A DNA stretch of 42,263 nt. Origin: a virus. Below the pieces are notes generated by a model, which was not told the DNA's origin, ran no database searches, and worked only from the letters and a program-made list of their open reading frames with translations. Shown piece after piece: positions 3,098 to 14,581 of this stretch. The translations under genes were made by a program, and so were the position numbers. The stretch lies in IMG/VR virus record IMGVR_UViG_3300021256_000029, positions 1 to 42,263 of that record; one strand, 5' to 3'. Position 1 is the first letter of the stretch; each line of letters opens with the position of its first letter.

Positions 3098-3139
3098 AAA
3101 ACAATGTGTTAAGTTCCCGGGAAAACGCCCGGTCGTCTG

Positions 3140-3495: not shown

Positions 3496-3586
3496 TGTCT
3501 TAACTCTTTAACCGGGAACCGGCCCGGGCCGTCGGAACAATCATCGTTCCGGGTACAAATGTAAGGATATTTTTTTAATTACCAAA
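3496..3586 (-). promoter_or_regulatory. Early promoter-leader cassette 1 (Bacteroidota sigma-A type promoter plus two-hairpin leader)
   Basis: Read on the minus strand:
- -33 TTTG at 3583-3586, a 19-nt spacer, then -7 TACATTTG at 3556-3563.
- Hairpin 1 GGAAC-GATGATT-GTTCC at 3534-3550.
- Hairpin 2 CCGGG-CCGGTT-CCCGG at 3512-3527, inside a 21-nt block identical in cassettes 1, 3 and 4.
- An A-rich leader, then ATG at 3495. Confidence 0.75.
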
Positions 3587-3605
3587 AGAAATACACAAAT
3601 TTTTA

Positions 3606-3806
3606 TCAAAAAAGTTTGGACCGGTCCACAATCCCGGGATTCCAACAGACGGAACCGGCGGCCAACGCCTGTTCAAACGCGGCGTCCGTGGCGGCGTGGC
3701 GGCCCAATTCGAACCAATGTTTGTATTTGGCCCGCTTAACCATTATACGGCAAATGCCGTTCGGGTCCCGGACAATGTGGGCGTCAACCTTTGTTTCCAT
3801 CGTCAT
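3606..3806 (-). CDS. Hypothetical protein (66 aa)
   Basis: The track ORF 3606..3875 overlaps the upstream gene. The ATG at 3804-3806 (MTMETKVDAH...) lies 10 nt after the upstream stop at 3817. Confidence 0.55.
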   Translation of the reverse strand: MTMETKVDAHIVRDPNGICRIMVKRAKYKHWFELGRHAATDAAFEQALAAGSVCWNPGIVDRSKLF

Positions 3807-3816
3807 TGTTCTTTGT

Positions 3817-4104
3817 TTAATCGCCGCCGGTTTCCTTATCCATCCGGCGCAACAACCGGCGTTGTTTCCGGTCATACTCTTTCATACAGGCATCCAACCC
3901 GTAAATAATCATCAATTGGCGAATCATCAAATGAACATCCGCGATTTCGGTAATAACCTTTTCCGGGGTTGTCCGGCCATCCTGTTCCCGTTCCAATTCG
4001 GTTATCAATTCGCCCATTTCTTCAATGGCCTTTCGCTTTTGGTGTTCCGCGCCGTAATGATGGACGGCCAACAACGGAACGGTCAACGGCTTTAACTCTT
4101 TCAT
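3817..4104 (-). CDS. MazG-like nucleotide pyrophosphohydrolase (95 aa)
   Basis: Small all-helical protein with EEMGELITELERE ... EIADVHLMIRQL, which matches the EExxE...ExxD metal-binding pattern of the MazG family. ATGA overlap with the upstream gene. Confidence 0.6.
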   Translation of the reverse strand: MKELKPLTVPLLAVHHYGAEHQKRKAIEEMGELITELEREQDGRTTPEKVITEIADVHLMIRQLMIIYGLDACMKEYDRKQRRLLRRMDKETGGD

Positions 4105-4280
4105 TGCTTCAATGCCAAATCCGGGTTATAATGATACCTTTTGCACGTTTCGTTTGGTCCACGTTTTGCGAAATTACGGGATGCGTGGCAATACGATTCG
4201 GGTTCAAAATTCCCGGTCTTTTCGTTGTACAATTGACCGGCAACGCGCCAATGGCGGCAATTCTTACATATCGGTTCCAT
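4101..4280 (-). CDS. Hypothetical Cys-rich (zinc-ribbon-like) protein, 59 aa (below track cutoff)
   Basis: Translated by hand: MEPICKNCRHWRVAGQLYNEKTGNFEPESYCHASRNFAKRGPNETCKRYHYNPDLALKQ. The ATG (4278-4280) follows the upstream TGA by 1 nt, and the stop overlaps the MazG ATG (ATGA). Confidence 0.6.
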   Translation of the reverse strand: MEPICKNCRHWRVAGQLYNEKTGNFEPESYCHASRNFAKRGPNETCKRYHYNPDLALKQ

Positions 4281-4281
4281 A

Positions 4282-4497
4282 TCAAAACAACCTTGGTGTT
4301 GGGTCCAACAAATGGGCGTTCAATGCGTCCAATTCCTTTTCCATCTGTTGCGCAATGTGCAACGCGTCAATATTACGCAACCGGAACCATCGGTTTTGAT
4401 TGTGGCGCAACGTGGCCACGAACCGGACATATTCGGCCGCCTGTTCCGGCGTTATTTTTTGCAAATTTTCGATTTGCGGGCATTTTAATTCTTCCAC
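4282..4497 (-). CDS. Hypothetical protein (71 aa, GTG start)
   Basis: The only in-frame start near the 5' end is GTG at 4495-4497. It lies 10 nt after the upstream stop. Confidence 0.5.
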   Translation of the reverse strand: MEELKCPQIENLQKITPEQAAEYVRFVATLRHNQNRWFRLRNIDALHIAQQMEKELDALNAHLLDPTPRLF

Positions 4498-4507
4498 GGG
4501 TAATTTA

Positions 4508-4792
4508 TCATTTTTTGTTTTTAATTCGTTTTACGGGCTTTTTTGTGGCCTTTCCGGGCGGGCGTCCTCTTTTACGCTTGGGTTGTGCGATTTCCGGGGC
4601 TTTCCGTGCGATTTTGGCCGATTTCTGTTCGATTTCGGCCGGTTTTTGTTCGATTGGATGGTTGCACCAAAAGAACGTCCCGGTTCCGGTCCTGTAAAAC
4701 CATTGGCATTTGCGGCAAATTGGCGAATCAATTTCGCATCCTTTGCCGAACGGGCAACCGCCGCCCATCAGCGTAAAAACCTTTGTTGGCAT
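4508..4792 (-). CDS. Cys-rich protein with AT-hook-like basic tail (94 aa)
   Basis: Two CxxC-type pairs (CPFGKGC...CRKC...C) are followed by a PAEI/SAEI/APEI repeat. The tail KRKRGRPPGKATKK has a GRP AT-hook core. Confidence 0.55.
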   Translation of the reverse strand: MPTKVFTLMGGGCPFGKGCEIDSPICRKCQWFYRTGTGTFFWCNHPIEQKPAEIEQKSAKIARKAPEIAQPKRKRGRPPGKATKKPVKRIKNKK

Positions 4793-4793
4793 A

Positions 4794-4967
4794 TCATTTC
4801 AAAATTGCGTTCAACTGTTCAATCGTCGTTACCTTTTCCGGCCATTCGTGCCAACCCACAATCAACGTCCCGTCCGGCTTCCATCCAATGCGCGGGTTAC
4901 TGAATCGAACCATTATCCCGGAACGTTCAACCCATCCTTGGGCCAACAGGTATTCACGCGTTATCAT
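4794..4967 (-). CDS. Hypothetical protein (57 aa)
   Basis: The track ORF 4794..5024 has a non-ATG start inside the HNH gene. The ATG at 4965-4967 (MITREYLL...) forms an ATGA overlap with the HNH stop. Confidence 0.5.
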   Translation of the reverse strand: MITREYLLAQGWVERSGIMVRFSNPRIGWKPDGTLIVGWHEWPEKVTTIEQLNAILK

Positions 4968-5443
4968 TCGCCAAGAAAAGTAAAGTGAAAACCTTTGTGT
5001 GCGGGCAATTCGCCACGGCAACATTTGGCAATGTGGGATGTGTCCAAATTCATTTTACGGGCCGCATCGGCGCAAGAATCAAACGTTTTCCCGGTTTCAA
5101 AGCAATATACGGGTTTTCCACGTTTTGCCGAACGTCGTTCAATACAAGAACCAAAATTGATGTTGTATTTTGCCGTACACCATTCCAAATTTTCGGCCCG
5201 GTTGTCCGTCTTGATTTCGTTTTTATGGTTGATTTGTGGCAACCCGTCCGGATTCGGAACAAATGCCAATGCAACCAACCGATGTATTTTGTAACGCTTG
5301 CGTTCAATACAAACTTGGTAATAACCCGTTTTTGTCTTTTCCGGCCTGTAAACACGAAACCCGTGTTTCAAAGTTGCGACACGGCCTTGGTCACTAACTT
5401 GGTAATAACCGGGCAAACCGGGTATTTCTTTCCACGTTTCCAT
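4964..5443 (-). CDS. HNH homing endonuclease (NUMOD4 + HNH + C-terminal HTH), 159 aa
   Basis: METWKEIPGLPGYYQVSDQGRV matches the NUMOD4 pattern. INHKNEIKTDNRAENLEW is an HNH_3 motif. FDSCADAARKMNLDTSHIAKCCRG looks like an IENR1/NUMOD1 HTH. The ATG at 5441-5443 follows the RuvC-like stop by 1 nt. Confidence 0.85.
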   Translation of the reverse strand: METWKEIPGLPGYYQVSDQGRVATLKHGFRVYRPEKTKTGYYQVCIERKRYKIHRLVALAFVPNPDGLPQINHKNEIKTDNRAENLEWCTAKYNINFGSCIERRSAKRGKPVYCFETGKTFDSCADAARKMNLDTSHIAKCCRGELPAHKGFHFTFLGE

Positions 5444-5444
5444 A

Positions 5445-6005
5445 TTAGAACAATTTTGCATATTCCCGGGCGGGCAAATTGCTTTTAACCCAATTGGGTT
5501 CATTGACCAACGCCCAACGTCCAAAGTGCATTATTAAAAGCGCATCAGCGTTCCACAATGTTACCTTAACGCCCGGGTAAAGTTTTGCGGCGTGTTCTTG
5601 GTAACGCTTTTTTCGGTCGGCCTTTTCTTCGTGGACGCCGCGAACGCGCAATTTCAACTTGGTTTGCCAACTTGCGGGATGGACCATTACATACGGAATC
5701 CCGGCGGTTTCGGCCAACGCTTTCAAGTGTTCAAAATTGGCCATCAACTTTTGAATCCTGTACATCTTTCCCATTGCGGCCCGTTCGCCCTGTACCATTA
5801 CGTCGTCCGGGCGGACCGACAATTTTTCCAAAAACACAATGGGTTTGTAATTCTCAACGTAATACGCAAAGAAATCCCGCAATTCGGTAATGTCCTTTGG
5901 CATTTTGGCAACCTTGGGATTTTGGCCGGGAATGAATATGGCAATGCCGCCATTGGCCCCGGGGTCAATCCCTATTACGCAATTTATTTTAATCTTTGCA
6001 TCCAT
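5445..6005 (-). CDS. RuvC-like Holliday junction resolvase (186 aa)
   Basis: Catalytic acidic motifs lie in the RuvC order: IGIDPGANGG, FLEK and NADALLI. Confidence 0.75.
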   Translation of the reverse strand: MDAKIKINCVIGIDPGANGGIAIFIPGQNPKVAKMPKDITELRDFFAYYVENYKPIVFLEKLSVRPDDVMVQGERAAMGKMYRIQKLMANFEHLKALAETAGIPYVMVHPASWQTKLKLRVRGVHEEKADRKKRYQEHAAKLYPGVKVTLWNADALLIMHFGRWALVNEPNWVKSNLPAREYAKLF

Positions 6006-6177
6006 CGTTTATTTCGTATTCTATAATAAATTCGGAACCGTTCGCAATGTTTTCAATATCTTTGGCCATTACTTTCACAATTTCAATGGCTTTTTTGAAA
6101 ACGAATAATTTGCCGTCTTTCTTTTTGCAAATATAACCGTTACACGCTTTTGTTATTATCAATTTATTCTTTTCCAT
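5989..6177 (-). CDS. Hypothetical protein (62 aa)
   Basis: ATG at 6175-6177 (MEKNKLIITK...) forms a TAATG overlap with the upstream stop. The longer track ORF start is non-ATG. Confidence 0.5.
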   Translation of the reverse strand: MEKNKLIITKACNGYICKKKDGKLFVFKKAIEIVKVMAKDIENIANGSEFIIEYEINDGCKD

Positions 6178-6398
6178 TACTTTCCACTTTTCAAAACCAC
6201 GAAACAATCCGTTTTCCTGTATTGGCGCGTCCACACGGTCAATTCGCCGTCGGGCGTATCAAATGTTGTCGCCCAACAATAATACATTTTCCCGTTTTCG
6301 CCCTTTGATATTTTGCCATCGGCGAAAACCCGGACAACGCAAGACAACGCAATTTCGGGTTTAATGTCGTCCCGTATTTCGATATGTATTTTCCCCAT
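6177..6398 (-). CDS. Hypothetical protein (73 aa)
   Basis: ATG start with a TGATG overlap to the upstream gene. Confidence 0.55.
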   Translation of the reverse strand: MGKIHIEIRDDIKPEIALSCVVRVFADGKISKGENGKMYYCWATTFDTPDGELTVWTRQYRKTDCFVVLKSGK

Positions 6399-7288
6399 CA
6401 GTCTAATTTGATATAATCCGTTATATTGATTCCATCGGCAACCATCTTGGCAAATGCGGCTTTCAACGCCTTTTTCCGGGCAATAGAAAACGCCCCGTGT
6501 TGCAATTCCGGCGCATCCGGTCCGGCCTGTTCCAATCGGCGCATATCGCCAACCATCCCACGGCGGGCCAATTGGTTAATCGTGCGTTGCAATATTTGCT
6601 TTTGTTCGTCAATAGTAACCACGATTTCCGGAGCCAATCCCGCATCCGTCAAAAGTTCGTAATATAACATTTCCCCAATCGGCGAAATATCCGGCATATA
6701 TCCGTTGGCCTTGAATTGTTCGAACGCGTTGATGCAATCTTGTTTTGTCCGGTTCCGCAATTCTTTGGCCTGTTCCGGGGTAATGGGCTTTTCCGGTTCC
6801 GGCGGCATTGCGTCGTTGGCCTTTTTCAAGACGGCCGCCCGTCTGTATTTGTATGCGTTCAATATCTTGCACACGTATTCGGCGTTGAATTGTTGGTAAT
6901 GGCCCCGGTCGGCTTGGCCGTCCCGGCCCTTGGGTAAATAATCGTCCAATTCCCCGGTAATGCTCATTTCAAAGGCCATTTTGAAATCCCGCATTGTCAA
7001 TCCGTCGTAATACCGTTTCAGTATTTCGGCAACGCGGACAACCAAATAACCGCGTTCGGATTCATCGGTTGCACGGTATCCCACATCCTTGGCAATCCAT
7101 TTCAACGCCTTGGCCAATTCAATGGACAATTCGTTGGCGTCGTATTCGGCAATGGTTTTGTCCGTGGATGCAAGAAACACGGAACGTTCGACCGGTCCCA
7201 ACGCATCCATTACGGCGGGAATCTTGGCCATTTCACGGCGGACAACAACCGCCGATTTGGGCTTGTATATTGTTACGCCTGTTTCCAT
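6398..7288 (-). CDS. Hypothetical protein (296 aa), replication-module associated
   Basis: ATG start 1 nt after the upstream stop. I recognised no diagnostic motif. It sits directly downstream of the putative initiator. Confidence 0.6.
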   Translation of the reverse strand: METGVTIYKPKSAVVVRREMAKIPAVMDALGPVERSVFLASTDKTIAEYDANELSIELAKALKWIAKDVGYRATDESERGYLVVRVAEILKRYYDGLTMRDFKMAFEMSITGELDDYLPKGRDGQADRGHYQQFNAEYVCKILNAYKYRRAAVLKKANDAMPPEPEKPITPEQAKELRNRTKQDCINAFEQFKANGYMPDISPIGEMLYYELLTDAGLAPEIVVTIDEQKQILQRTINQLARRGMVGDMRRLEQAGPDAPELQHGAFSIARKKALKAAFAKMVADGINITDYIKLD

Positions 7289-7289
7289 A

Positions 7290-8081
7290 TTATCGCGCCA
7301 TATCTTTCAAATATTCGATTGCATCCGGGGACAATGCGCCGCCGGGGTTCAACCGGTGCAATTTGCCCTTTTCCATATCGCCACGAATAAAGTTCCGGGC
7401 CGTCGCAATCCAATCTTTCATCTTTTTGCCCTTTTGGGCGGACCAATCGGCGACGGCGTGGTAATAATACACAATATCCACGTCGGCAAATTCCGGGGCC
7501 GTAAATTCGGCGGAAAATGCGTTGTAATCAGCGAACCGGGAATTTTCAAACAGACACGCGGCCGGTTCGGCGGTCCGGCGGGGCCGGGTTACTGTAATAG
7601 GAACAAAACCGGGGTCGGCCGGGAATAAACCGCCGTCGGCGGCTTTGTCTTTAATGCTTGAATCGGTAATGTTATAGTCTTTATTAACGCGGTCCGTTTT
7701 CGGACCAATTGCCGGTCCGTTTTCGGTCTGTTCTTGGTCCGTTTTCGGACTGTTAGACCGGATTTGTTCTTTTTCCTTTCCCCAATCGGCGCAACGGTTC
7801 GTGAACCGAACATATTTAACGCGTCCCAACTTGGTTAATTCAACAAATCCCATATCGGCCAATTCCGTAATGTTCTTGTAACAACGTTTGGCAACGCCGA
7901 ACAATAACGGGAAATCGTCGGCCATCTTTTCGTCCGAATATTGATACCAAACGAATCCATCAATGGCAACAGTCTTTGACCATATCGGCAACGTCATAAA
8001 CGCGGCCAACGTCGAAACCTGTACCAACGACAAATCGTTGACAATGGCAAATTCTTGGTCAATATTCAATGTGTACGTCAT
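7290..8081 (-). CDS. Putative winged-helix DNA-binding / replication initiator-like protein (263 aa)
   Basis: The track ORF starts at TTG 8192, inside a promoter. The first ATG is 8079-8081 (MTYTLNIDQEF...). The N-terminus has a wHTH-like segment (KNITELADMGFVELTKLGRVKYVRFT), followed by a low-complexity linker and a basic C-terminal domain. Confidence 0.4.
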   Translation of the reverse strand: MTYTLNIDQEFAIVNDLSLVQVSTLAAFMTLPIWSKTVAIDGFVWYQYSDEKMADDFPLLFGVAKRCYKNITELADMGFVELTKLGRVKYVRFTNRCADWGKEKEQIRSNSPKTDQEQTENGPAIGPKTDRVNKDYNITDSSIKDKAADGGLFPADPGFVPITVTRPRRTAEPAACLFENSRFADYNAFSAEFTAPEFADVDIVYYYHAVADWSAQKGKKMKDWIATARNFIRGDMEKGKLHRLNPGGALSPDAIEYLKDMAR

Positions 8082-8189
8082 AATCAAAAAAATTCCCGGC
8101 ATTTGGGCCACGACGCACCAAACACCGGGAATACTCGCAAAGGGTAGCGATAATTTCCAACCGTTGGTCGTGGGCAACGTTATTTGATG

Positions 8190-8197
8190 CAAAGATA
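8190..8197 (-). promoter_or_regulatory. -7 box TATCTTTG of a class-II promoter (GAAAAATAAC-TATCTTTG-CA)
   Basis: Matches the Bacteroidota TAnnTTTG element. The flanks are nearly identical to those of the boxes at 34339 and 14654. It lies about 100 nt upstream of ATG 8081. Confidence 0.5.
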
Positions 8198-8198
8198 G

Positions 8199-8912: not shown

Positions 8913-8914
8913 AA

Positions 8915-10180
8915 TTACAATTCCATTTCAGCGTTTAACAAATTGTCCTTTGCGGCCTGTTCCGCAATCTGTTCCGGCGTCGGTCCAACGGGCTTGGCGG
9001 GTTCCGGTTTCTTTTCCCACGGTAATTTTTCGTCATTTTCCGTTTTAACGGGCTTTTCCGGTTCGGACGGGGTATTTACCGGTTCGGTTGCTTTCGTCGC
9101 TTTTACGGCCCTTTTTGTGGCCTTTTTGGCCGGTTCCGCCTGTTGGCCCGGTTCCGGGGCGGCGGCCGCCTGTTTCGGGGCTTCCTTTGTGTCCGCCTTG
9201 GTGCGTATCAGTTCGGCCAACGATAACGTCAACAGGTTGTCCGCAATCTTTCCGTTATCCAAGTCAAGAACGCCACGAACGATTGTCAACGTGTTGTCCC
9301 GCTTTTCATCCTCAATCGCGGCCAATGCTAAAAGATACGGCAATTTCTTTGCGTTGACGGAATCCGTTTGGTCTTTCAAATTGTACGTGGGTTTGGTGCG
9401 CCAATCTTTCGGGGAAAAGTTAAACACGCGTTCAATCGGTTTGTCCTCAAAATTGACATTCCACATTTCCCGGTACAAATGCAACTGTAATTCGTGTTCT
9501 TCAAAAAACCCTTTGCGGCCGCTTTTGAAATCCACAATGGCCGTGAACGTCTTGGCCGTTTTGGGGTCCGTCATTACGCACGGCAAATCCAAACAACCGG
9601 CATACCGGAATTTGGGATGGACCAAACCGATTTCCACGGCCAACGGTTTCACGTTGTAATCCTTGACGAATTGAGCAAATGCCAAAACGTCCTTTCGGAC
9701 CTTAACCAACCATTGGGAAAACAGGGATTCCGGGACGTGTTCGCGTTCCATATACGCAAGCAATACGGACGGGACGTTATCAAAGTCGTAACGGCGGTTG
9801 ATAATCAGTTTTTCAAATTCGCCGTGCATAAACGTTCCGTATGCGGCGGCCAAATCCCGCTTTTCCGTGGAACCCTCTTTTCCATTGGTCAACATCCAAT
9901 CCAATAATGTTGGCGACATTGGCATTACCTGTTTCAAAAGCGTGGTAACGGACGGGTAAAATTCCGGCGTTCCATCGGCTTTGAATCGGTAATAATACCG
10001 GTATCCGTCGGAATTGAGTTGGAACACCCGGTACGGCGGTTCCTTTAACGCATCCGCGTTGAAATAGACGGCGCGGATTTCCTCAACGGTCATTCCCGGG
10101 AACACCTCTTGGGCCTTTTCCTGTTCCGGGGCCATCAATGCGGCCAACGCCGCGTCATTCTGTTTAATTTCTTTTTCCAT
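8915..10180 (-). CDS. PD-(D/E)XK (RecB/Cas4/lambda-Exo-like) exonuclease with low-complexity C-terminal tail (421 aa)
   Basis: Motifs appear in order: GTFMHGEFE, AGCLDL, IVDFKSG (D-x-K) and QLHLY (QxxxY). The last ~90 aa are P/K/A/E-rich. The ATG is embedded in GCGATACGATG. Confidence 0.7.
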   Translation of the reverse strand: MEKEIKQNDAALAALMAPEQEKAQEVFPGMTVEEIRAVYFNADALKEPPYRVFQLNSDGYRYYYRFKADGTPEFYPSVTTLLKQVMPMSPTLLDWMLTNGKEGSTEKRDLAAAYGTFMHGEFEKLIINRRYDFDNVPSVLLAYMEREHVPESLFSQWLVKVRKDVLAFAQFVKDYNVKPLAVEIGLVHPKFRYAGCLDLPCVMTDPKTAKTFTAIVDFKSGRKGFFEEHELQLHLYREMWNVNFEDKPIERVFNFSPKDWRTKPTYNLKDQTDSVNAKKLPYLLALAAIEDEKRDNTLTIVRGVLDLDNGKIADNLLTLSLAELIRTKADTKEAPKQAAAAPEPGQQAEPAKKATKRAVKATKATEPVNTPSEPEKPVKTENDEKLPWEKKPEPAKPVGPTPEQIAEQAAKDNLLNAEMEL

Positions 10181-10193
10181 CGTATCGCATTTT

Positions 10194-10367
10194 TTATTTC
10201 ATCCGGGCAAAACGGATATATTCACGCAAGAACATCCCGAACATTACGGACGCAAGAACGGCGACAACATAAATGGCGGGTTTCCAAAAGATACCGGCAA
10301 TTGCGCCGATAAGGACAACGGCCCAAACAATGGTCCAAAACAAATTCAATGTACTTTCGTATTTCAT
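10194..10367 (-). CDS. Small membrane protein, two predicted TM helices (57 aa)
   Basis: ATG at 10365-10367 (MKYESTL...), 4 nt after the upstream stop. Hydrophobic stretches LFWTIVWAVVLIGAIAGIF and AIYVVAVLASVMFGMF. Confidence 0.55.
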   Translation of the reverse strand: MKYESTLNLFWTIVWAVVLIGAIAGIFWKPAIYVVAVLASVMFGMFLREYIRFARMK

Positions 10368-10371
10368 AACC

Positions 10372-10602
10372 TTATTCGTTTGAAAGTCCAAACAGGAAAT
10401 CGGCCGTGCATCCGGTCATTTCGCAAATGATGTTGACCCAAGCGGGGTTGATTTTGTTGGTTTTCCCGTTACACAACGCGGTCATATTGACCTGTTGGGC
10501 GGCGGGTGCGGAATCGGGCCACAACTTGGCGGCAACGTCCTTTTTCAATACCTTTTTGCCCTGTTCTTTTGCGCGGGCAATCGCTTGTTCAATTCGCATC
10601 AT
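10372..10602 (-). CDS. XRE/Cro-like helix-turn-helix transcriptional regulator (76 aa)
   Basis: Size and pattern (KKDVAAKLWP....VNMTALCNGKT...W...ICEMTGCTADFLFGL) fit short XRE-family HTH proteins. ATGA overlap with the upstream gene. Confidence 0.55.
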   Translation of the reverse strand: MMRIEQAIARAKEQGKKVLKKDVAAKLWPDSAPAAQQVNMTALCNGKTNKINPAWVNIICEMTGCTADFLFGLSNE

Positions 10603-11039
10603 AATTCTTTTTCGCTTTTAATGGTTTTGCCACATTCGCGGCATTGGTAAATGTAATTGTCAATAACGTATGAATTGGGCGTGTAATAATCGCCATCATT
10701 CAATTCGTGGCCCTCTGTTTCGATAAACCGCAATTCCCCGCCGCAATGCGGGCAATCGCCATCCCCAAGAATAACAAGACGGCAAAACGCATCGAACACG
10801 TCACAATGGATTGCCCGACATTCGCCAAATAAGAACGTGGACAATCCGGCGCACACGTCGGAAACCAATTTGTCCCCGGTCGCCTTTATGACCGTCACGC
10901 CGTAATTGTCTTGCGTATCCTCAAACATACCGGAATCAATGAACCATTTGCAAAGTTCAACGGCCACGGTTTCGTTGGCAACGGGTGCGTCCATTGCGGC
11001 CGCAACCCTGTTCAAATTTTCGTCAATCTTGAATCGCAT
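10599..11039 (-). CDS. Hypothetical zinc-ribbon protein (146 aa)
   Basis: ATG at 11037-11039 (MRFKIDEN...). The C-terminus carries CPHCGG...CRECG. Confidence 0.5.
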   Translation of the reverse strand: MRFKIDENLNRVAAAMDAPVANETVAVELCKWFIDSGMFEDTQDNYGVTVIKATGDKLVSDVCAGLSTFLFGECRAIHCDVFDAFCRLVILGDGDCPHCGGELRFIETEGHELNDGDYYTPNSYVIDNYIYQCRECGKTIKSEKEL

Positions 11040-11070
11040 AATTGTTCCGGGAATCCGCCCGGGCGGGGTC

Positions 11071-11310
11071 TTATTCAAGTTCAATTCCGCAATAGGTGTA
11101 ATCTAATTCATTGTCATATTCGGCCGCGTCGAATTTAGGACCAAAGAAATTTTTGATTGCGGCAACGGCGTTTGTGTTGTTTCCCTCAATTTCAACAGTA
11201 AGATAAATTCCGCCTTTCTTACGTCCGGACAAAACGGTTACATCAACAGTCGTTCCGGCAATTGCCCCAATCTTGGCGTTCATCATCTGTTTCAAAATTT
11301 CTGTTCTCAT
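11071..11310 (-). CDS. Hypothetical protein (79 aa), first gene of early operon 2
   Basis: ATG directly after early cassette 2. Confidence 0.6.
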   Translation of the reverse strand: MRTEILKQMMNAKIGAIAGTTVDVTVLSGRKKGGIYLTVEIEGNNTNAVAAIKNFFGPKFDAAEYDNELDYTYCGIELE

Positions 11311-11402
11311 TGCTTTTTTGTTTTATCCCGGAACCCGCCGGGTCGGTTGGGTTGGTTCCTCAACCCGGGTACAAAGATAGGTATTATTTTCTAATTACCA
11401 AA
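11311..11402 (-). promoter_or_regulatory. Early promoter-leader cassette 2
   Basis: On the minus strand:
- -33 TTTG at 11399-11402, a 19-nt spacer, then -7 TATCTTTG at 11372-11379.
- Hairpin 1 GGGTTG-AGGAAC-CAACCC at 11349-11366.
- Hairpin 2 CCCGG-CGGGTT-CCGGG at 11327-11342, with its arms swapped relative to the other cassettes. Confidence 0.75.
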
Positions 11403-11570
11403 ATTTTTAACATAATTTTTTATAGTTGCACCCGGACAACCAACGACGCAAACTTAATTTTCACGAATTTTCGATTTAACGGCATTTCCCGGCAAAAACG
11501 ATAAGTTATACCACCCGGAACAGAAAAGCCCGGAAAACGGCTTAAAAACGGCCGTTCCGGGCGGGATACG

Positions 11571-11594
11571 AAAAACCCGGGGATTTGCCCGGGT
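11571..11594 (-). terminator. Intrinsic terminator after early operon 3
   Basis: The minus strand reads ACCCGGG-CAAATC-CCCGGG followed by TTTTT. It starts 6 nt after the stop at 11600. Confidence 0.7.
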
Positions 11595-11599
11595 GTTTC

Positions 11600-11905
11600 T
11601 TAATTCGTCGTTTCGGCGTTGATGTGTTTATGGATTAGTGTATAAACCGCCGTTATGGCCTGTTTGTTTTCGTTGTATTCCTGTTGGGTGCAATCGGCCA
11701 CAAAGTTTTCGAATTGCTTGTACAGGGCTTGCAACTGTTCCCGGCTCATTGTGTACCGGCGGCAACCGCTTTCGTCAACAAATCCCCGTTCATCTTCAAC
11801 AATCCGGATTCCCGGGTTTAAGATTTTGTTGGCCCTGTATTCGTCGGCCGTCATTTCAACAATCTTGGTTTTTCCTGTAACCGGGTGCGTCGTTTCAACT
11901 TTCAT
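11600..11905 (-). CDS. Hypothetical protein (101 aa)
   Basis: ATG at 11903-11905 (MKVETTHPV...), preceded by AATCCAAAAGCGATATG and by an 8-bp hairpin at 11923-11942. Confidence 0.55.
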   Translation of the reverse strand: MKVETTHPVTGKTKIVEMTADEYRANKILNPGIRIVEDERGFVDESGCRRYTMSREQLQALYKQFENFVADCTQQEYNENKQAITAVYTLIHKHINAETTN

Positions 11906-11950
11906 ATCGCTTTTGGATTGTGGGGGCCGGTTGCCCGGCCCCGGGTTCAA

Positions 11951-12220
11951 CTATTCGACAACCGTAATGATATGGGTAACGTCCATTGCTTTGCCACGGG
12001 TTCCGGGCTTTCCGGCGGACCGGTGCGCCCTCAATGTGAACACATCCCCGTTGCGGTCCAAATCGTAATCGTCGAATTTGCAAATGTCCATAAGAAACGT
12101 AATGCGTTGGGAAATCCACGTTTCGGCGTCCACGAACCCGCGATGGTTGGTTACTTTGCCGTTGTATATGGTTTGAACCTTGGATTTCATTGCGTATTTG
12201 GTGTTGATTGTGTATGCCAT
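11951..12220 (-). CDS. Hypothetical protein (89 aa)
   Basis: The track ORF 11951..12535 reads through cassette 3 and another gene. The ATG at 12218-12220 (MAYTINTKY...) follows a hairpin at 12237-12256. Confidence 0.55.
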   Translation of the reverse strand: MAYTINTKYAMKSKVQTIYNGKVTNHRGFVDAETWISQRITFLMDICKFDDYDLDRNGDVFTLRAHRSAGKPGTRGKAMDVTHIITVVE

Positions 12221-12264
12221 AATGATTGGGGTTTGTGGCCCGGGTTTCCCGGGGCCGTGTTTAA

Positions 12265-12447
12265 TTACTTTGAAAGTTGTGCAATCCGGCGTTCGATTTC
12301 CGAATGGAAATACGGGGTTGAATTTTTGAGAATTTCGTAATTGGCAATCGTTTCTTCCTTTGTATAGGATTTCCGGCCAAACATTTTTTTGTACATTTTG
12401 GTCACTTGCGTTTTTTTGTAAGTGGCCATTGATTGCGTTTGATACAT
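12265..12447 (-). CDS. Hypothetical basic protein (60 aa), first gene of early operon 3
   Basis: ATG directly after early cassette 3. Confidence 0.55.
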   Translation of the reverse strand: MYQTQSMATYKKTQVTKMYKKMFGRKSYTKEETIANYEILKNSTPYFHSEIERRIAQLSK

Positions 12448-12536
12448 TGCTTTGTTCTTTACCGGGAACCGGCCCGGGCCGTTGGGTTATTTCCTTAACC
12501 CGATACAAAGGTACAACAATTTTTCTAAAAACCAAA
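12448..12536 (-). promoter_or_regulatory. Early promoter-leader cassette 3
   Basis: On the minus strand:
- -33 TTTG at 12533-12536, a 19-nt spacer, then -7 TACCTTTG at 12506-12513.
- Hairpin 1 GGGTTA-AGGAAA-TAACCC at 12484-12501.
- Hairpin 2 CCGGG-CCGGTT-CCCGG at 12462-12477. Confidence 0.75.
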
Positions 12537-12609
12537 ACTTTTACTTTAATTTTGCGCGATTTTTCGAAAAAAGTTGCATTTTGCCGGAAAGAATACCGCC
12601 GAAACCCGG

Positions 12610-12617
12610 TATATTTG
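12610..12617 (+). promoter_or_regulatory. Plus-strand -7 box TATATTTG, divergent from cassette 3
   Basis: Exact TAnnTTTG match 28 nt upstream of the plus-strand ATG at 12645. I found no well-spaced -33 TTTG; the nearest is 26 nt upstream. Confidence 0.45.
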
Positions 12618-12644
12618 TATGCGTAACCATCAAACCAAACAGTT

Positions 12645-12788
12645 ATGCCCGTTCAAAAAGTCCCCGGCGGTTATCGTTTCGGTACAACCGGCAAAGTTTA
12701 TCCCACAAAAGCCCAAGCGGAACAACAGGCCCGCGCAATTTATGCGTCCGGGTATCGTGAAAAGCCCCAACAAAGCAAAAAGAAATAG
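12645..12788 (+). CDS. Hypothetical basic 47-aa protein; the only plus-strand gene
   Basis: Translates to MPVQKVPGGYRFGTTGKVYPTKAQAEQQARAIYASGYREKPQQSKKK. It has its own -7 box. It is followed by a hairpin (12788-12816) and a plus-strand intrinsic terminator (12871-12900). It is below the track cutoff. Confidence 0.5.
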   Translation: MPVQKVPGGYRFGTTGKVYPTKAQAEQQARAIYASGYREKPQQSKKK

Positions 12789-12830
12789 GGAATTTCGCCA
12801 ATCGGCGAATTTTCCCTATCTTTGTGGCGT

Positions 12831-12900
12831 CTTTTTACCCATCGTATCGCCTACCACGGTATTTTGACCGCCCCGCCGGGATTCGTCCGGGCGGGGTTTT
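12831..12900 (+). ncRNA. Candidate ~70-nt sRNA (or 3' UTR) carrying a seed antisense to the GCGATACGATG start-codon motif
   Basis: The -7 box TATCTTTG lies at 12817-12824. The seed CCCATCGTATCGCC lies at 12838-12851. The terminator CCCCGCCGGG-ATTCGT-CCGGGCGGGG-TTTT lies at 12871-12900. The 5' end is only estimated. Confidence 0.35.
12871..12900 (+). terminator. Intrinsic terminator with a plus-strand U-tract; the hairpin also abuts the stop of minus-strand gene 12899..13159
   Basis: A 10-bp GC stem with a 6-nt loop and a TTTT(AT) tail on the plus strand. On the minus strand the hairpin is followed by CGGTCAAAATA, which has no U-run. Confidence 0.7.
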
Positions 12901-13159
12901 ATAGAATTTGCGCACATTCATACGCATACCGTTCCCGATATGACCAATGGCACAACGCCATTATTCGGTTTTCTTCCTTTTGTGCCTGTATTTCATCCCA
13001 TACGGACCAACCCTTGGACGAATATGGAAACGGGTACGCCTTTTTGAACCGCCGCAATGATGTGTAACGCGGAAATGGTCGCAAACGGTCGGATTTTGGC
13101 GTTGTGGTTTGCGGACCGGAAACACAAACGGGTTTTAATTTTCTTGGTTTCTTTTTCAT
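12899..13159 (-). CDS. Hypothetical basic protein (86 aa)
   Basis: ATG at 13157-13159, preceded by AATCCAAACGCGATATG. It lies 12 nt after the upstream stop. Confidence 0.55.
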   Translation of the reverse strand: MKKKPRKLKPVCVSGPQTTTPKSDRLRPFPRYTSLRRFKKAYPFPYSSKGWSVWDEIQAQKEENRIMALCHWSYRERYAYECAQIL

Positions 13160-13171
13160 ATCGCGTTTGGA

Positions 13172-13723
13172 TTATCTGTTATGCGGATTCCGCGCCCGTA
13201 TCTGTTCCGCCAATTCCGGCCGATTCTTGCACATATAATCGTACACGTACAATTCCCCGTAAAAGCCGGTTTCCAATTGGTAACGGGCCATCGTTTCGGG
13301 GTCCAATTCGATGCAAGACGCGTACATTTCTTTCCGAACGTCCCGATGCAATGCCCGTTCAAATGTCGGGTCAATGTATTTGTCCCCAATCTTGACAAAC
13401 GCGTGTTCAATCGGCAACAGGCCGTAACAATACGCGTAACCCTCAACGTATTTTGTCGGTAAATCAAAATCCAATATAAAATACCATTGTTCGATTATCT
13501 GTATTAAATCGGCGGCGTTCTTGTAACACATTTTTTGTTGTGTCTTGTAACCGGCGTTTTTGAACAGGAATTGCAATTGTTCCGGCGTGAACACGTCCCG
13601 CATCGGCACACATTCAACCACCCGGGCGTCGTTTGCCTGTTGTTCAAACCACGCTTTTTGTTCCGGGTTCCAATCCAATGACGCCCGGGCGCGTAATTCT
13701 TCAATGATTGTGTTTGTTTCCAT
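13172..13723 (-). CDS. Hypothetical protein (183 aa), possible Cys-His-Asp fold
   Basis: ATG start. MCYKNAADL ... PIEHAFVKIGDKYIDPT could form a transglutaminase/papain-like triad. This is motif-level only. Confidence 0.5.
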   Translation of the reverse strand: METNTIIEELRARASLDWNPEQKAWFEQQANDARVVECVPMRDVFTPEQLQFLFKNAGYKTQQKMCYKNAADLIQIIEQWYFILDFDLPTKYVEGYAYCYGLLPIEHAFVKIGDKYIDPTFERALHRDVRKEMYASCIELDPETMARYQLETGFYGELYVYDYMCKNRPELAEQIRARNPHNR

Positions 13724-13898
13724 TTGTCTTTTTACGTTTTATCGGTTTCAGTAATCGCCCGGGCAACGCTTCGCACGGGGTCGCGGCCCAACAATACACG
13801 GTTTCGGAAATCGGCCGCCCGCTTTTCCGGTCCGCATAACAACGCCCATCCCGCCCGTATGAATGACGTTTGCAATGTTCGCATTGTTCCCGGGTCAT
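13701..13898 (-). CDS. Hypothetical Cys-rich basic protein (65 aa)
   Basis: ATGA overlap with the upstream gene. It overlaps the next gene by 23 nt. CEHCKR...C...C pattern. Confidence 0.45.
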   Translation of the reverse strand: MTREQCEHCKRHSYGRDGRCYADRKSGRPISETVYCWAATPCEALPGRLLKPIKRKKTNGNKHNH

Positions 13899-14095
13899 AT
13901 CAAATTTGGTGTTGTCTTTTTCCCGCCCATCTGTTCGGCCAATTCTTGAACCCGGGCGGCCTGTTCGTCCATCGAAATATTCTTGATGTAATTGGCGGTC
14001 ACGCGTTCGCCCTTGCGGCCGTATGCGTTCGTAAAGTGTTCAACGGTCACGTCCCAAAGCGTGTAAAACTTGGTTGTAAATCCAATCGTGTACAT
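13895..14095 (-). CDS. Hypothetical protein (66 aa)
   Basis: ATG at 14093-14095 (MYTIGFTTKF...), 13 nt after the upstream stop. The longer track start is non-ATG. Confidence 0.5.
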   Translation of the reverse strand: MYTIGFTTKFYTLWDVTVEHFTNAYGRKGERVTANYIKNISMDEQAARVQELAEQMGGKKTTPNLI

Positions 14096-14108
14096 AATCG
14101 CGGGGGAA

Positions 14109-14342
14109 TTAAGCAACGTAAAAGGAAATTTTGATACCACGGCGCAATTTGCAAACGCAAACGTCGGTCATATCGTTAAACGCACGGTCCAAAAGACGGT
14201 TGGTTAATTCAATGTCGCCGACCAAGCGGATAAGGCCGGACACGCCAACCAATGTGTTGATTTTGGAACCCTCATAAAGCCCGGAAACCTTGATTTTGTA
14301 ATTGCGGTTGATTTCCTTGGTGGTGTATTTTAACGTTGCCAT
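14109..14342 (-). CDS. Hypothetical protein (77 aa), first gene of early operon 4
   Basis: ATG at 14340-14342 (MATLKYTTKE...) directly after cassette 4. The track ORF start at 14396 lies inside the leader hairpins. Confidence 0.6.
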   Translation of the reverse strand: MATLKYTTKEINRNYKIKVSGLYEGSKINTLVGVSGLIRLVGDIELTNRLLDRAFNDMTDVCVCKLRRGIKISFYVA

Positions 14343-14435
14343 AACTGTTGTTGTTTGTTCCGGGAACCGGCCCGGGCCGTCGGGTTGTTTCATCAACCAC
14401 GGTACAAAGGTACAACAAAAAATTTAATTTCCAAA
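14343..14435 (-). promoter_or_regulatory. Early promoter-leader cassette 4
   Basis: On the minus strand:
- -33 TTTG at 14432-14435, a 19-nt spacer, then -7 TACCTTTG at 14405-14412.
- Hairpin 1 GGTTG-ATGAAA-CAACC at 14383-14398.
- Hairpin 2 CCGGG-CCGGTT-CCCGG at 14360-14375. Confidence 0.75.
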
Positions 14436-14581
14436 AGTTTTACCATAATTTTTACACAAAAAGTTAATTTTTCCGAAAATTCGTTTTAAGACACTTTTAC
14501 GGCACGGACAATAACTTGTACCACCCGGACCGGGAAACGCGCTAAAAATGGCCTAAAAATGCGAAATCCGGGATGGGACGG

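Follow-up and report, generated by a model that had tools for sequence, protein, structure and literature searches.

The conserved element at the head of the early transcripts of this virus is a 21-nt H-type RNA pseudoknot, of which the "hairpin 2" described in an earlier sequence-only reading forms one stem. Judged by comparison among phages, this pseudoknot and not the promoter is the conserved, portable unit. We tentatively regard it as a cis-acting leader module capping a short unstructured ribosome-landing leader (probability roughly 0.42), through which mRNA stability or translation would be affected.

In the window, the whole 42,263-nt stretch of viral DNA analyzed here (IMG/VR record IMGVR_UViG_3300021256_000029), the four minus-strand cassettes located by the sequence-only reading were all confirmed. 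In each, a promoter is followed by a first hairpin (HP1) and a conserved GC block, after which an A-rich spacer leads to the ATG of a small gene; the first genes, described as encoding 60-79 aa, have 77, 60, 79 and 62 aa. The proposed promoter, with -33 TTTG and 19 nt ahead of TAnnTTTG-TA (TTTG-N19-TAnnTTTGTA), was counted six times in the window versus 0.05 expected, and the cassettes account for four of the six. By their motif, TTTG-N19-TAnnTTTG, these are Bacteroidota-type promoters, in agreement with the published consensus (PMC7366714). The 21-nt block said to be identical in three cassettes has three exact window copies versus 0 expected. The features of the window are:

14403..14435, minus strand: cassette 4 promoter (-33 TTTG, 19 nt, -7 TACCTTTG, then TA), consensus PMC7366714
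14381..14401, minus strand: cassette 4 HP1 (CGTGGTTG / CAACCCG), predicted 5'-terminal hairpin of the transcript
14360..14380, minus strand: cassette 4 pseudoknot core ACGGCCCGGGCCGGTTCCCGG; 17-nt A-rich spacer; ATG 14342
14342-14109, minus strand: cassette 4 first gene, 77 aa
12504..12536, minus strand: cassette 3 promoter
12484..12501, minus strand: cassette 3 HP1 (GGGTTA / TAACCC)
12462..12482, minus strand: cassette 3 pseudoknot core; 14-nt spacer; ATG 12447, 60-aa gene
11575..11594, minus strand: intrinsic-terminator-like hairpin and U tract, closing the cassette-3 unit ahead of the cassette-2 promoter
11370..11402, minus strand: cassette 2 promoter
11349..11366, minus strand: cassette 2 HP1 (GGGTTG / CAACCC)
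11327..11347, minus strand: cassette 2 pseudoknot core ACCGACCCGGCGGGTTCCGGG; 16-nt spacer; ATG 11310, 79-aa gene
11047..11067, minus strand: promoter-less internal pseudoknot CCCGCCCGGGCGGATTCCCGG
3618..3634, minus strand: terminator-like hairpin and U tract, closing the cassette-2 unit immediately ahead of the cassette-1 promoter
3554..3586, minus strand: cassette 1 promoter
3533..3551, minus strand: cassette 1 HP1 (CGGAAC(GA) / (TT)GTTCCG)
3512..3532, minus strand: cassette 1 pseudoknot core; 16-nt spacer; ATG 3495, 62-aa gene
3300-3229, minus strand: tRNA-Gln(ttg), within the cassette-1 operon
3220-3139, minus strand: tRNA-Leu(caa), within the cassette-1 operon
3117..3137, minus strand: post-tRNA pseudoknot GACGACCGGGCGTTTTCCCGG, 2:13 = A:U; 19-nt spacer; ATG 3097, 150-aa gene
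41209..41226, minus strand: possible degenerate seventh copy (CCG-tt-CCGG-CGG-aa-CCGG), S2 only 4 bp, low confidence

The fold comprises stem S1 (positions 2-4 with 11-13) and stem S2 (6-10 with 17-21), with a loop 1 of 1 nt and a loop 3 of N-U-U; only five core nucleotides are unpaired, among which positions 5 and 14 vary freely. Covariation in a larger set of homologues, a kind of check suggested by the sequence-only reading, supported both stems. Across all 75 unique cores, pairing reached 88.5% versus 75.7% after shuffling and the covariation score 0.289 versus 0.087; none of 500 shuffles attained either value, and slid registers scored lower. The 53 unique cores filtered on context alone gave 93.2% versus 77.9% and 0.343 versus 0.085 (0/500 shuffles), with covariation present in both S1 and S2. 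Two-sided changes were found at 2:13 (CG/AU), 3:12 (CG/GC/UA), 4:11 (GC/CG), 7:20 (CG/GC) and 8:19 (GC/CG/UA), of which 3:12 and 8:19 covary independently and were both unconstrained in the collection scan. Scanning 1.34 Mb with a position-independent PWM returned 247 matches of at least 16 bits versus 17 in shuffles. The folding energy of the window leaders is not significant by itself (z -1.05 to +0.01); ViennaRNA does not score pseudoknots, and nested-only leader energies are unremarkable. The structural case is carried by covariation, on which we count the fold as established; in principle, the two stems might be alternative folds that do not form simultaneously. G:U pairs (8 cells) versus A:C (6 cells) gave no strand-specific signal. 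Positions G9, G10, C17, C18 and U15-U16 are nearly invariant across cores, which is partly ascertainment by the search patterns.

For cassette 2 an "arm swap" had been proposed. The change is indeed compensatory, but it is a single flip of pair 8:19 from G:C to C:G and not an exchange of whole arms. Pair 3:12, in the helix overlooked before, has also flipped in a compensatory way (G:C to C:G), and the remaining difference from the other cassettes is the unpaired position 5.

HP1 is a sequence-variable hairpin that is real beyond the window. As had been claimed, its pairing is kept despite sequence change: 52 unique related leaders have a median folding z of -2.7, with 31 of the 52 below -2, and carry 25 distinct 5' arms. 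The compensatory changes in HP1 and hairpin 2 thus uphold the idea that an RNA structure is under selection at the 5' ends of early transcripts. HP1 is missing in 19/90 promoter-linked contexts and in the examined post-tRNA and post-stop copies, and would be an optional promoter-linked stem-loop at the 5' terminus, additional to the pseudoknot.

The element had been described from the four promoter cassettes but is not confined to them: the window contains six copies, possibly a seventh, and two lack a promoter. The copy at 11067-11047 starts 3 nt past the stop codon that closes the 79-aa gene, and 7 nt separate its end from ATG 11039, which opens a 146-aa gene homologous to PDS1 gp11; PDS1 gp11 is arranged in the same way. 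Copies thus recur within operons, two of them 295 nt apart in PDS1 and at 11347 and 11067 in the window. The copy at 3137-3117 begins 2 nt past the tRNA-Leu 3' end. The sequence at 41226-41209, with ATG 41186 lying 22 nt downstream, is possibly a degenerate copy (low confidence); the homologous gene in PDS1 (16028) and AS73P1 (25213) has longer-L1 copies upstream at the matching position.

Among 145 unique contexts, 71 have a promoter and HP1, 19 a promoter without HP1, 11 lie directly after a tRNA, starting 2-5 nt beyond its 3' end, and 44 are internal or other. In all classes the gap between pseudoknot and ATG peaks at 14-22 nt (class medians 15-19 nt), and a gap of only 7 nt occurs in five unique contexts. 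The 12 nt downstream of the core are 54-74% A with few G, and the 6 nt upstream are rich in A/C with few G. In Ent1 and L084 the core begins 6-7 nt past the -10 box, which places it at the transcript 5' end. In B. thetaiotaomicron, the 5' UTR of most mRNAs measures 23 nt (median 32 nt), and these mRNAs rely on upstream A residues, not on a Shine-Dalgarno (SD) sequence (PMC7366714), so the pseudoknot occupies roughly the place at which a usual mRNA would start. SD-using phages retain an ordinary SD between pseudoknot and ATG. The pseudoknot keeps a single strict orientation relative to genes, with asymmetric loops, and is confined to the non-structural genome arm, and in these phages no structural or late gene has it, even where intergenic gaps exist. 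It is independent of the gene that follows: the proteins encoded behind it form 49 unrelated clusters (median length 74 aa), an integrase among them, 11 cassette clusters each precede more than one protein family, and 17/49 families are preceded by more than one cassette.

The spread crosses phyla. Apart from the gut-bacteria phage of the window and the cultured phages PDS1, C1_85S2P and AS73P1, the pseudoknot occurs in hundreds of other phages, Salmonella phages included. In 361 records of Guernseyvirinae (mainly Salmonella and Escherichia phages), a single copy lies at the 5' end of the mRNA for a ssDNA-binding protein (SSB) of the gp2.5/Enc34 type (PF10991 E = 3.7e-13, phrog_112 E = 1e-40), at a spacing of ~27-35 nt, and the 14-22-nt spacing is hence not universal. 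At E < 1e-3, Ent1 has no protein in common with either the window or PDS1. The pseudoknot had no match in Rfam, and no earlier description of it was found in the literature.

Each cassette reads as a host-type (sigma-ABfr) promoter, a 5'-terminal HP1, the pseudoknot, a 14-19-nt A-rich G-poor spacer and the start codon. The pseudoknot would act post-transcriptionally and in cis on the mRNA, as the structured 5' boundary of an early translation unit. It may protect the ribosome-landing leader from 5'-end-dependent decay, irrespective of whether that end arises by transcription initiation, tRNA excision or intercistronic cleavage. It may also keep upstream RNA from pairing with the A-rich initiation region, so that a gene would be expressed whenever recombination places it behind the module. 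Several observations fit this leader cap less well. HP1, where present, precedes the pseudoknot and could alone protect the 5' end, and post-stop internal copies need a putative endonucleolytic cut to become 5'-proximal. With a 7-nt gap the fold would lie inside the 30S footprint, which looks like repression rather than protection, and the Guernseyvirinae spacing differs. The near-invariant bases are not obviously explained by pure structure, and neither the G:U versus A:C counts nor the nested energies add a signal.

An unlikely contender is a translational operator modelled on T4 gp32, which acts likewise on its own gene 32 mRNA: a protein that binds single-stranded nucleic acid, for example the phage SSB, would nucleate on the pseudoknot, spread over the adjacent unstructured A-rich spacer and block the start codon, giving feedback or temporal shut-off of early genes. 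The Guernseyvirinae copy ahead of the SSB gene fits this, as do the layout shared with the T4 operator (PMC3014915), the repressive look of copies with 7-nt spacing and the pseudoknot heading the SSB-containing operon of PDS1, AS73P1 and probably the window. However, the SSB of the Bacteroidales phages belongs to another family, PF00436, its gene is not itself pseudoknot-led, and the lack of proteins common to Ent1 and the window, the 49 unrelated led families and a 14-22-nt spacer that fits only two or three gp32-sized monomers speak against it.

The tight gap to the ATG in all context classes could instead reflect a translation enhancer, which we consider rather unlikely. The fold would touch a part of the 30S subunit that is universal (platform, S1 or mRNA exit side) and recruit or position ribosomes, mattering most in Bacteroidota, where SD pairing is unused. 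It is found wherever a start is uncoupled from translation upstream, also behind stop codons and tRNAs, spans phyla without a common phage protein, and has nearly invariant junction bases and U15-U16. Yet an enhancer would not be expected to be missing from structural and late genes, to leave an ordinary SD in place or to tolerate the Guernseyvirinae spacing, and informal inspection found no rRNA complementarity conserved across variants.

It is doubtful that the fold is a processing signal, which a host endoribonuclease would recognize or beside which it would cut, dividing early polycistronic RNA into units, as at T7 early-region RNase III sites or in tRNA "punctuation". Its leader and intercistronic sites, the recurrent adjacency to tRNA genes, themselves processing sites, the A-rich single-stranded sequence directly upstream and the RNase E cut ~4 nt upstream of the T4 gene 32 pseudoknot agree with this. 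Beside a tRNA, however, such a signal would be redundant, and the fold is not followed by CCA or any other tRNA-like 3' feature. A coaxial stack of HP1, S1 and S2 has at most ~14 bp, which is short for RNase III and weakens this reading. Computationally it is indistinguishable from stabilization, with which it is compatible.

The put-like processive antiterminator proposed by the sequence-only reading, in which nascent two-hairpin RNA would bind elongating RNA polymerase and confer terminator resistance, is very improbable. In all four cassettes two stem-loops directly follow an early promoter, with terminator-like hairpins further downstream, but HP1 is missing from some promoter-linked contexts and from the examined post-tRNA and post-stop copies, promoter-less copies exist, operons carry several copies down to 295 nt apart, spacing is fixed to start codons and not promoters, Rfam gives no match, and the only convincing coding-strand intrinsic terminators, 11594-11575 and 3634-3618, both lie at operon ends immediately before the next promoter as ordinary unit boundaries. 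There is very little to recommend a minimal ligand-sensing riboswitch setting early-gene translation by host physiology: the compact H-type pseudoknot in 5' UTRs, its near-invariant junction and loop-3 bases and its conservation across phyla would suit one, but the few unpaired nucleotides partly vary freely, SD and start codon are both unsequestered, leaving no expression platform, downstream genes share no metabolic theme, and no Rfam riboswitch matches. A DNA-level site, either protein operator or cruciform, is scarcely credible: the perfect 12-bp palindrome CGGCCCGGGCCG is indeed present in three window cassettes shortly past the promoter, and the G:U versus A:C counts are compatible with a double-stranded reading, but it is restricted to the G3/C5/C12 variant (its extra pair 5:10 is unpaired in 41/53 cores) and thus not conserved, one genome holds mutually "compensated" variants that a single sequence-specific protein would not tolerate, copies without promoters exist, and strict orientation with asymmetric loops is unexpected for a symmetric operator.

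Overall, the observation made in the sequence-only reading was confirmed and its interpretation partly supported; its fallbacks, a 5' stabilizer or a processing site, are viable and fit better than its put-like element or operator. The cis-acting leader module favored here finds its closest likeness in the T4 gene 32 leader, which combines a pseudoknot, an unstructured A/U-rich leader and very stable transcripts and is processed by RNase E ~4 nt upstream of the pseudoknot (PMC3014915).

The window carries the genome, of about 42 kb, of a siphovirus of gut or rumen Bacteroidales, in which nearly all genes lie on the minus strand. The genome encodes a tape-measure protein with 55% identity to those of Parabacteroides phages PDS1 and PD491P1 and Bacteroides phage C1_85S2P, and its gene order is syntenic with that of PDS1.

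Arrangement of genes in the window
About 36 kb down to 15.7 kb: structural and lysis genes
14.4 kb down to 1 and on from 42.3 kb down to about 37 kb: non-structural arm, with genes for replication and recombination and small genes without assigned function

The non-structural arm is called early by analogy only. By synteny with PDS1, the window ends (1-660 and 41406-42263) fall between a NinB-like gene (254-658) and a DNA polymerase gene (41406-42248), and the genome appears to be complete and circularly permuted. The PDS1 annotation had suggested a phage sigma factor for late genes, an assumption that was dropped: no homologue of PDS1 gp43 ("RNA polymerase sigma factor") was detected in the window, and the ORF directly upstream of the terminase large-subunit gene (36625-37185, minus strand) matches small-terminase PHROGs.

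Four promoter-leader cassettes, located exactly by the sequence-only reading, lie in the non-structural arm.

Leader cassettes of the window
3496-3586, minus strand: cassette 1
11311-11402, minus strand: cassette 2
12448-12536, minus strand: cassette 3
14343-14435, minus strand: cassette 4

Each consists of a promoter, a hairpin of variable sequence (HP1), a 21-nt core, an A-rich spacer and an ATG. The other elements of that description also held: the promoter pattern TTTG-N19-TAnnTTTGTA has six matches in the window against 0.05 expected, four of them being the cassettes, the 21-nt block is present in three exact copies with none expected, and the first genes are small (77, 60, 79 and 62 aa). 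Promoter elements recognized by the Bacteroidota sigma-ABfr are spaced by about 19 nt. All four cassettes fit TTTG-N19-TAnnTTTG, the sigma-ABfr consensus consisting of a -7 TAnnTTTG and a -33 TTTG (PMC7366714), and their promoters are predicted to be of this type; the same Bacteroidota motif is found upstream of 90 related copies of the core. In each cassette the promoter precedes both HP1 and the core, neither of which has a U tract, and terminator-like hairpins, separate from these leader structures, precede two of the cassettes. The two remaining promoter matches have neither HP1 nor core: one (15685-15717, minus strand) is upstream of a lysis-region ORF at 15656, and the other (31875-31908, minus strand) is inside or next to the portal gene. 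Directly upstream of the first cassette along the minus strand is a gene (14665-15288, minus strand) that is kept in PDS1 (stretch L001, 1047-1661), C1_85S2P and BKO1-3. Its annotation in those phages as "ribosomal large subunit pseudouridine synthase B" looks unsupported, since searches against Pfam and PHROGs returned only DUF6549 and phrog_14010, neither with an assigned function; the plus-strand ORF overlapping it (14573-15520) is probably spurious.

The structure of the core emerges from its variation. The block of cassette 2 differs from that of the other three at five positions, namely 3, 5, 8, 12 and 19. The change at positions 8 and 19 had been interpreted as a compensatory swap of the arms of a second hairpin; the compensation was borne out, and the supposed exchange of arms proved to be a flip of this single base pair. 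Positions 3 and 12 represent a second compensatory flip, in a helix that joins the 5' flank (positions 2-4) to the hairpin loop (positions 11-13), and position 5 is unpaired. As judged from these pairings, the core is an H-type pseudoknot composed of stem S1 (2-4 with 11-13), a 1-nt loop 1 (position 5), stem S2 (6-10 with 17-21) directly adjoining the S1 partner strand, and a 3-nt loop 3 (positions 14-16), loop lengths that are presumably feasible for stems of 3 and 5 bp under the usual steric rules of pseudoknot geometry. The two interleaved helices, with no base between them, both covary and would stack coaxially. Nested folding returns the two hairpins originally proposed, at energies not better than those of shuffles (z from -1.05 to +0.01), and folding energy was therefore dropped as evidence.

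A search of IMG/VR for the exact block returned 23 stretches, all with the same architecture, and a degenerate scan with positions 3, 5, 8, 12 and 19 left free returned more than 118. Among the latter, in promoter or start-codon context, 3:12 and 8:19 covary independently, the observed states being G:C and C:G, plus two U:G cases at 3:12, and the state of 3:12 does not predict that of 8:19. A structure-only scan recovered copies outside the reach of the selecting pattern, in which 2:13 is A:U, 4:11 is C:G and S2 reads CGGGG/CCCCG, CGCGG/CCGCG or TGCGG/CCGCA. To avoid circularity, a position-independent weight matrix was built, which gave 247 matches of at least 16 bits over 1.34 Mb, compared with 17 in shuffles. 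In an unfiltered set of 75 unique cores, 88.5% of cells are paired, compared with 75.7% in shuffles, and the covariation score is 0.289, compared with 0.087; neither value was reached in any of 500 shuffles, and every slid register scored lower. A set of 53 cores, filtered on context, never on pairing, and supplemented with variants from Salmonella phages and Porticoccaceae, gave 93.2% versus 77.9% and 0.343 versus 0.085, again with 0 of 500 shuffles, counts that are not to be read as probabilities. The compensatory covariation first noticed among the cassettes survives, in both sets, the alignment of more homologues, metagenomic relatives included. Of the eight pairs, five showed changes on both sides. 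Because the patterns used to recruit many of the loci fix several positions, the near-invariance of C6, G9, G10, C11, U15, U16, C17, C18 and G21 is partly built in, and a strand test comparing G:U with A:C was uninformative (8 versus 6). Overall, we estimate a probability of roughly 0.85-0.9 that this element is a selected RNA pseudoknot tied to the starts of early genes.

HP1 is a real hairpin of free sequence, but it is optional. The earlier description of it as structurally kept and variable in sequence agrees with 52 unique promoter-to-pseudoknot leaders, for which the median folding z is -2.7, with 31 below -2 and 25 distinct 5' arms. It begins 3-5 nt past the -7 box, where transcription would be expected to start or right beside that point, and 0-1 nt separate its end from the pseudoknot. 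HP1 is missing in 19 of 90 promoter-linked contexts, as well as in the post-tRNA and post-stop copies examined.

The pseudoknot is tied to start codons, not to promoters. The window has six canonical copies, four of which belong to the cassettes; the other two, and a possible seventh, are as follows:

Pseudoknot copies of the window outside the cassettes
11067-11047, minus strand: promoter-less copy, starts 3 nt past the stop codon of the first gene of cassette 2, its end 7 nt short of the following ATG
3137-3117, minus strand: post-tRNA copy, starts 2 nt past tRNA-Leu(caa) and ends 19 nt before an ATG
41226-41209, minus strand: possible seventh copy, degenerate

Copies in related sequences were also sorted by context.

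Contexts of the pseudoknot (145 unique credible contexts)
Bacteroidota promoter and HP1 upstream: 71 copies
Bacteroidota promoter without HP1 upstream: 19 copies
Directly after a tRNA: 11 copies
Internal, after a stop codon, or behind another promoter type: 44 copies

Spacings between pseudoknot and ATG are most frequent at 14-22 nt, and each context class has its median within 15-19 nt. The spacer (+1 to +12) is 54-74% A and G-poor, the 6 nt upstream of the core are A/C-rich and G-poor, and spacers are unpaired in most minimum-free-energy folds. In the window, PDS1, C1_85S2P and AS73P1, every canonical copy is on the coding strand, within the non-structural arm. PDS1 has two copies only 295 nt apart, and the window copies at 11347 and 11067 share one operon. 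In PDS1 (L001), the annotated starts of gp5 (1886-2203) and gp11 (4430-5050) place pseudoknots (1911-1931 and 4588-4608) within coding sequence; the ATGs at about 1952 and about 4616 are the more likely true starts, since they fit the usual spacing and the window homologues. A recurrent variant found after stop codons (ACCGGGGCGTCGGTTTCCCGGCGTCCC; ACCGGGGGCGGGTTCCCGTCC) falls outside the standard register and occurs in three related stretches (L034, L036 and L107), about 20 nt upstream of an ATG, and in AS73P1 (L253) at 21499. It can be drawn with S1 as ACC/GGU and S2 as GGGCG/CGUCC and may represent a second sequence family of the same topology.

The order tRNA, pseudoknot, gene recurs in at least 11 related contexts. 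In the window, tRNA-Gln(ttg) and tRNA-Leu(caa) (3139-3300, minus strand) lie within the cassette-1 operon, between its small first gene and a pseudoknot-led gene. This 62-aa first gene (3307-3495, minus strand) has a weak match to Sm/LSM (PF01423, E = 0.0017, below cutoff), has no PHROG and was not found in PDS1. An LSM-like identity was not retained, the single-sequence AlphaFold model being all-beta but too poor to use (pLDDT 55); the product could be a small RNA-binding beta-barrel encoded near tRNAs and A-rich leaders.

Genes led by the pseudoknot encode small proteins, of median length 74 aa, which form 49 unrelated clusters. Signs of shuffling emerge between leaders and genes: each of 11 cassette clusters (at most 4 mismatches over 66 nt) is joined to between two and four unrelated first genes, and more than one cassette is found ahead of 17 of the 49 gene families. 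One example is cassette 2 of the window, which is common to the related stretches L011 and L016, yet leads three different genes. In the examples inspected among shuffled cassettes, similarity stops at the 3' end of the pseudoknot or at most about 10 nt past it.

The element is not confined to phages of Bacteroidales. Several viral and MAG contigs have the same core between a sigma70-type promoter and a Shine-Dalgarno sequence, and in a Porticoccaceae contig pair 8:19 is U:A. Among cultured phages, the core was found in 361 records of Guernseyvirinae, 318 of them Salmonella and 34 Escherichia, with 4 entered as Kagunavirus and a few others; the window's own core variant is absent from the cultured-phage collection. 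Salmonella phage vB_SenS-Ent1 (Ent1) has one canonical copy, arranged as TTGACA, 17 nt, TATATT, 7 nt and then ACTGACCGGGCAGCTTCCCGG, with 3:12 as U:A; since the core begins 7 nt past TATATT, the fold would be at the 5' end of the transcript. A comparison of Jerseyvirus, Kagunavirus and Cornellvirus shows a core that is constant except for loop 1 and the first loop-3 base, in a leader that otherwise diverges. The gene led by the pseudoknot in Guernseyvirinae encodes a gp2.5/Enc34-type single-stranded DNA-binding protein (SSB), which is gp38 in Ent1; in the window, PDS1 and AS73P1 the pseudoknot leads other gene families and the SSB is of PF00436, and none of the other non-Bacteroidota led genes checked is an SSB. 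No protein of the complete Ent1 genome was found again in the window or in PDS1, and none was common to the Bacteroidales phages and the non-Bacteroidota contigs with sigma70/Shine-Dalgarno context. No canonical copy was found in phage B40-8, an Elizabethkingia phage keeps the S2 hairpin only, a Xanthomonas/Xylella phage match was judged to be due to chance, and the Ent1 leader has no match in E. coli genomes. A scan of bacterial genomes gave 120 matches, most of them chance occurrences in high-GC coding sequence, with about 25 credible. Two Casimicrobiaceae genomes contain a perfect core 28 nt upstream of a cspA-like cold-shock gene (stretches L186, 4505-4525, plus strand, and L179, 3385-3405, minus strand), which may mean that cells also use the fold, or may be due to chance, the DNA being 69% GC. 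In three non-Bacteroidota stretches (L169, L103 and L055), a small protein family (N-terminus M.YRIYLR..., about 90-150 aa), which also matches stretch L158, is encoded one gene downstream of the pseudoknot-led gene, and L055 has two pseudoknot-led genes in tandem. Unrelated to the pseudoknot, several strong inverted repeats were noted in Ent1 (L257) at 38186-38290, in a 1-kb gene-free gap between gp45 and gp46.

Given that these phages and contigs have no protein in common and that their SSB families differ, a dedicated phage partner is unlikely; on present sequence comparisons, the fold would either act alone or meet a universal host machine. Two features recur at the positions of the pseudoknot: the proximity of an RNA 5' end, real or likely (at a transcription start, a site of tRNA 3' processing or a gap between cistrons), and, next, a short A-rich leader without structure, about as long as a typical Bacteroides 5' UTR. 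In B. thetaiotaomicron, most mRNAs have a 23-nt 5' UTR, and upstream A residues correlate with translation efficiency (PMC7366714). By analogy with the T4 gene 32 leader, the counterpart that is documented best, we tentatively favour a cis-acting leader module that would cap and insulate the ribosome-landing region, guarding it against 5'-end-dependent decay and against pairing with upstream RNA. Both kinds of protection would also explain why the module travels with shuffled genes.

Other modes of action are less well placed. A gene-32-like operator, at which the fold nucleates a repressor that binds single-stranded nucleic acid, would fit the SSB link in Guernseyvirinae and the copies with 7-nt spacing, but the SSB families differ between phage groups and the led genes are diverse, which makes this operator unlikely. 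Somewhat lower still is the likelihood of an enhancer that recruits ribosomes, and a small chance is given to an RNA processing signal, which is compatible with the capping model. The put-like antiterminator originally proposed, an RNA that would bind RNA polymerase and so suppress terminators further along, conflicts with the presence of several copies per operon, of copies without a promoter and of a spacing fixed to start codons; furthermore, convincing terminators (11594-11575 and 3634-3618) occur only at unit ends, immediately before the next promoter, and HP1 is not constant, so that antitermination is highly improbable. A riboswitch is rated marginally below it, and a DNA operator on the 12-bp palindrome of the block is the least probable of all, since the pair that completes the palindrome, 5:10, is unpaired in 41 of the 53 cores, and the palindrome is not a conserved feature.

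Early phage genes decide the success of an infection, Bacteroidota do without Shine-Dalgarno-led initiation, and early expression in phages of gut Bacteroidales has barely been described. One small, covariation-supported fold stands ahead of dozens of unrelated early genes and moves with them, and it is found again at the 5' end of an SSB mRNA in phages of Salmonella and E. coli. Such a spread points to a general answer to a problem of expression, be it message survival, ribosome access or timed shut-off. It is conceivable, though doubtful, that the element represents a new class of ultra-compact (21-nt) pseudoknots, found at the 5' boundary of early cistrons in phages of at least two bacterial phyla, that acts through a universal host machine, as the lack of a common phage protein would suggest. 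It might then be a nuclease-blocking, cap-like 5' structure, the bacterial counterpart of exoribonuclease-resistant viral RNAs, or a structured element that recruits ribosomes in place of, or in addition to, Shine-Dalgarno pairing, and its perfect conservation would make it the recombination joint for swapping early genes between phages. These possibilities can be tested directly, since tractable hosts are in culture, namely Salmonella and E. coli for Jerseyvirus and Kagunavirus, and Parabacteroides for phiPDS1. In addition, the pseudoknot can serve to mark true start codons (PDS1 gp5 and gp11 appear to be mis-started), to flag the early transcription units of uncultured phage genomes, and as a candidate compact leader part in Bacteroides expression design.

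Compared with known systems, the element most resembles the T4 gene 32 leader in its proposed function, SAS/ESAS in layout and PeSL in evolution, and it is a member of none of them. The pseudoknot of T2 and T4 measures about 30-36 nt, whereas the present fold has 21. In T4, it lies about 67 nt upstream of the gene 32 AUG, and RNase E processing occurs at -71, about 4 nt upstream of the pseudoknot (PMC3014915). Both are H-type pseudoknots with coaxial stems (the stacking being inferred here) in a phage mRNA leader, both are followed by an unstructured stretch up to the ribosome-binding site (A-rich here, A/U-rich in T4), and in Guernseyvirinae a phage SSB gene is likewise downstream. However, no sequence relationship is evident, Rfam scans having given no match at the cassettes; the spacer is 14-22 nt instead of about 40 nt; 6-7 copies per genome precede unrelated genes instead of a single autoregulated gene; and the SSB gene of the window is not led by the pseudoknot, which, in addition, crosses bacterial phyla.

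The SAS of Cluster K mycobacteriophages are short repeats of one orientation, directly before the start codons of non-structural genes only, of varied families; about half carry an additional upstream inverted repeat (ESAS), and a role in translation is suspected (PMC3203893). The ESAS inverted repeat is comparable to HP1. SAS, however, has a linear 13-bp consensus, GGGATAGGAGCCC, with a Shine-Dalgarno core, is located 3-7 bp from the start and occurs in one phage cluster, with no covarying fold reported (PMC3203893), whereas the present element differs in sequence, covaries as a pseudoknot, lies 14-22 nt from the start and occurs across phyla. The PeSL of T4-type phages are small repeated cassettes of early promoter and stem-loop among small non-essential genes; their copies recombine, shuffling gene modules, and their stem-loops are effective transcription terminators (PMC2839356). 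The signature of modular shuffling is also seen in the present cassettes, whose structures, unlike those of PeSL, follow the promoter, within the transcript leader and without a U tract, and whose core also occurs without a promoter.

Like the put RNAs of HK022 and nut (boxA/boxB) of lambda, the element is a structured nascent RNA encoded downstream of early promoters, and nutR, too, is found directly past the stop codon of a first gene. Put and nut, however, are present once per early operon, placed with respect to the promoter and in no fixed relation to start codons, put being a pair of stem-loops of about 70 nt, both of them constant, whereas here a 21-nt pseudoknot core adjoins start codons in many copies per genome. 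Stabilisers of mRNA that form a 5'-terminal stem-loop, such as the E. coli ompA leader, and the RNase III sites of the T7 early region are RNA structures, in leaders or between cistrons, that determine where the mRNAs of highly expressed genes end and how long they last; they are simple hairpins without sequence conserved across phyla, in contrast to the specific pseudoknot with nearly invariant junction bases described here.

A scan of the whole window with Rfam 15 at gathering thresholds returned only two tRNAs, and a scan of 11250-14500 at E <= 10 gave no match at the cassettes, including to the preQ1-I, SAM-II and guanidine-III families, a negative result that is weak, since very short pseudoknots score poorly in covariance models. 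Literature searches retrieved no paper containing the core sequence and no description of the element, and the phiPDS1 paper does not mention it. Given the differences in sequence and size from the T4, SAS and PeSL elements, together with these searches, the element is judged to be new among cis-acting structured phage mRNA leaders, and, should it act through a universal host machine, it would constitute a new class of RNA element.
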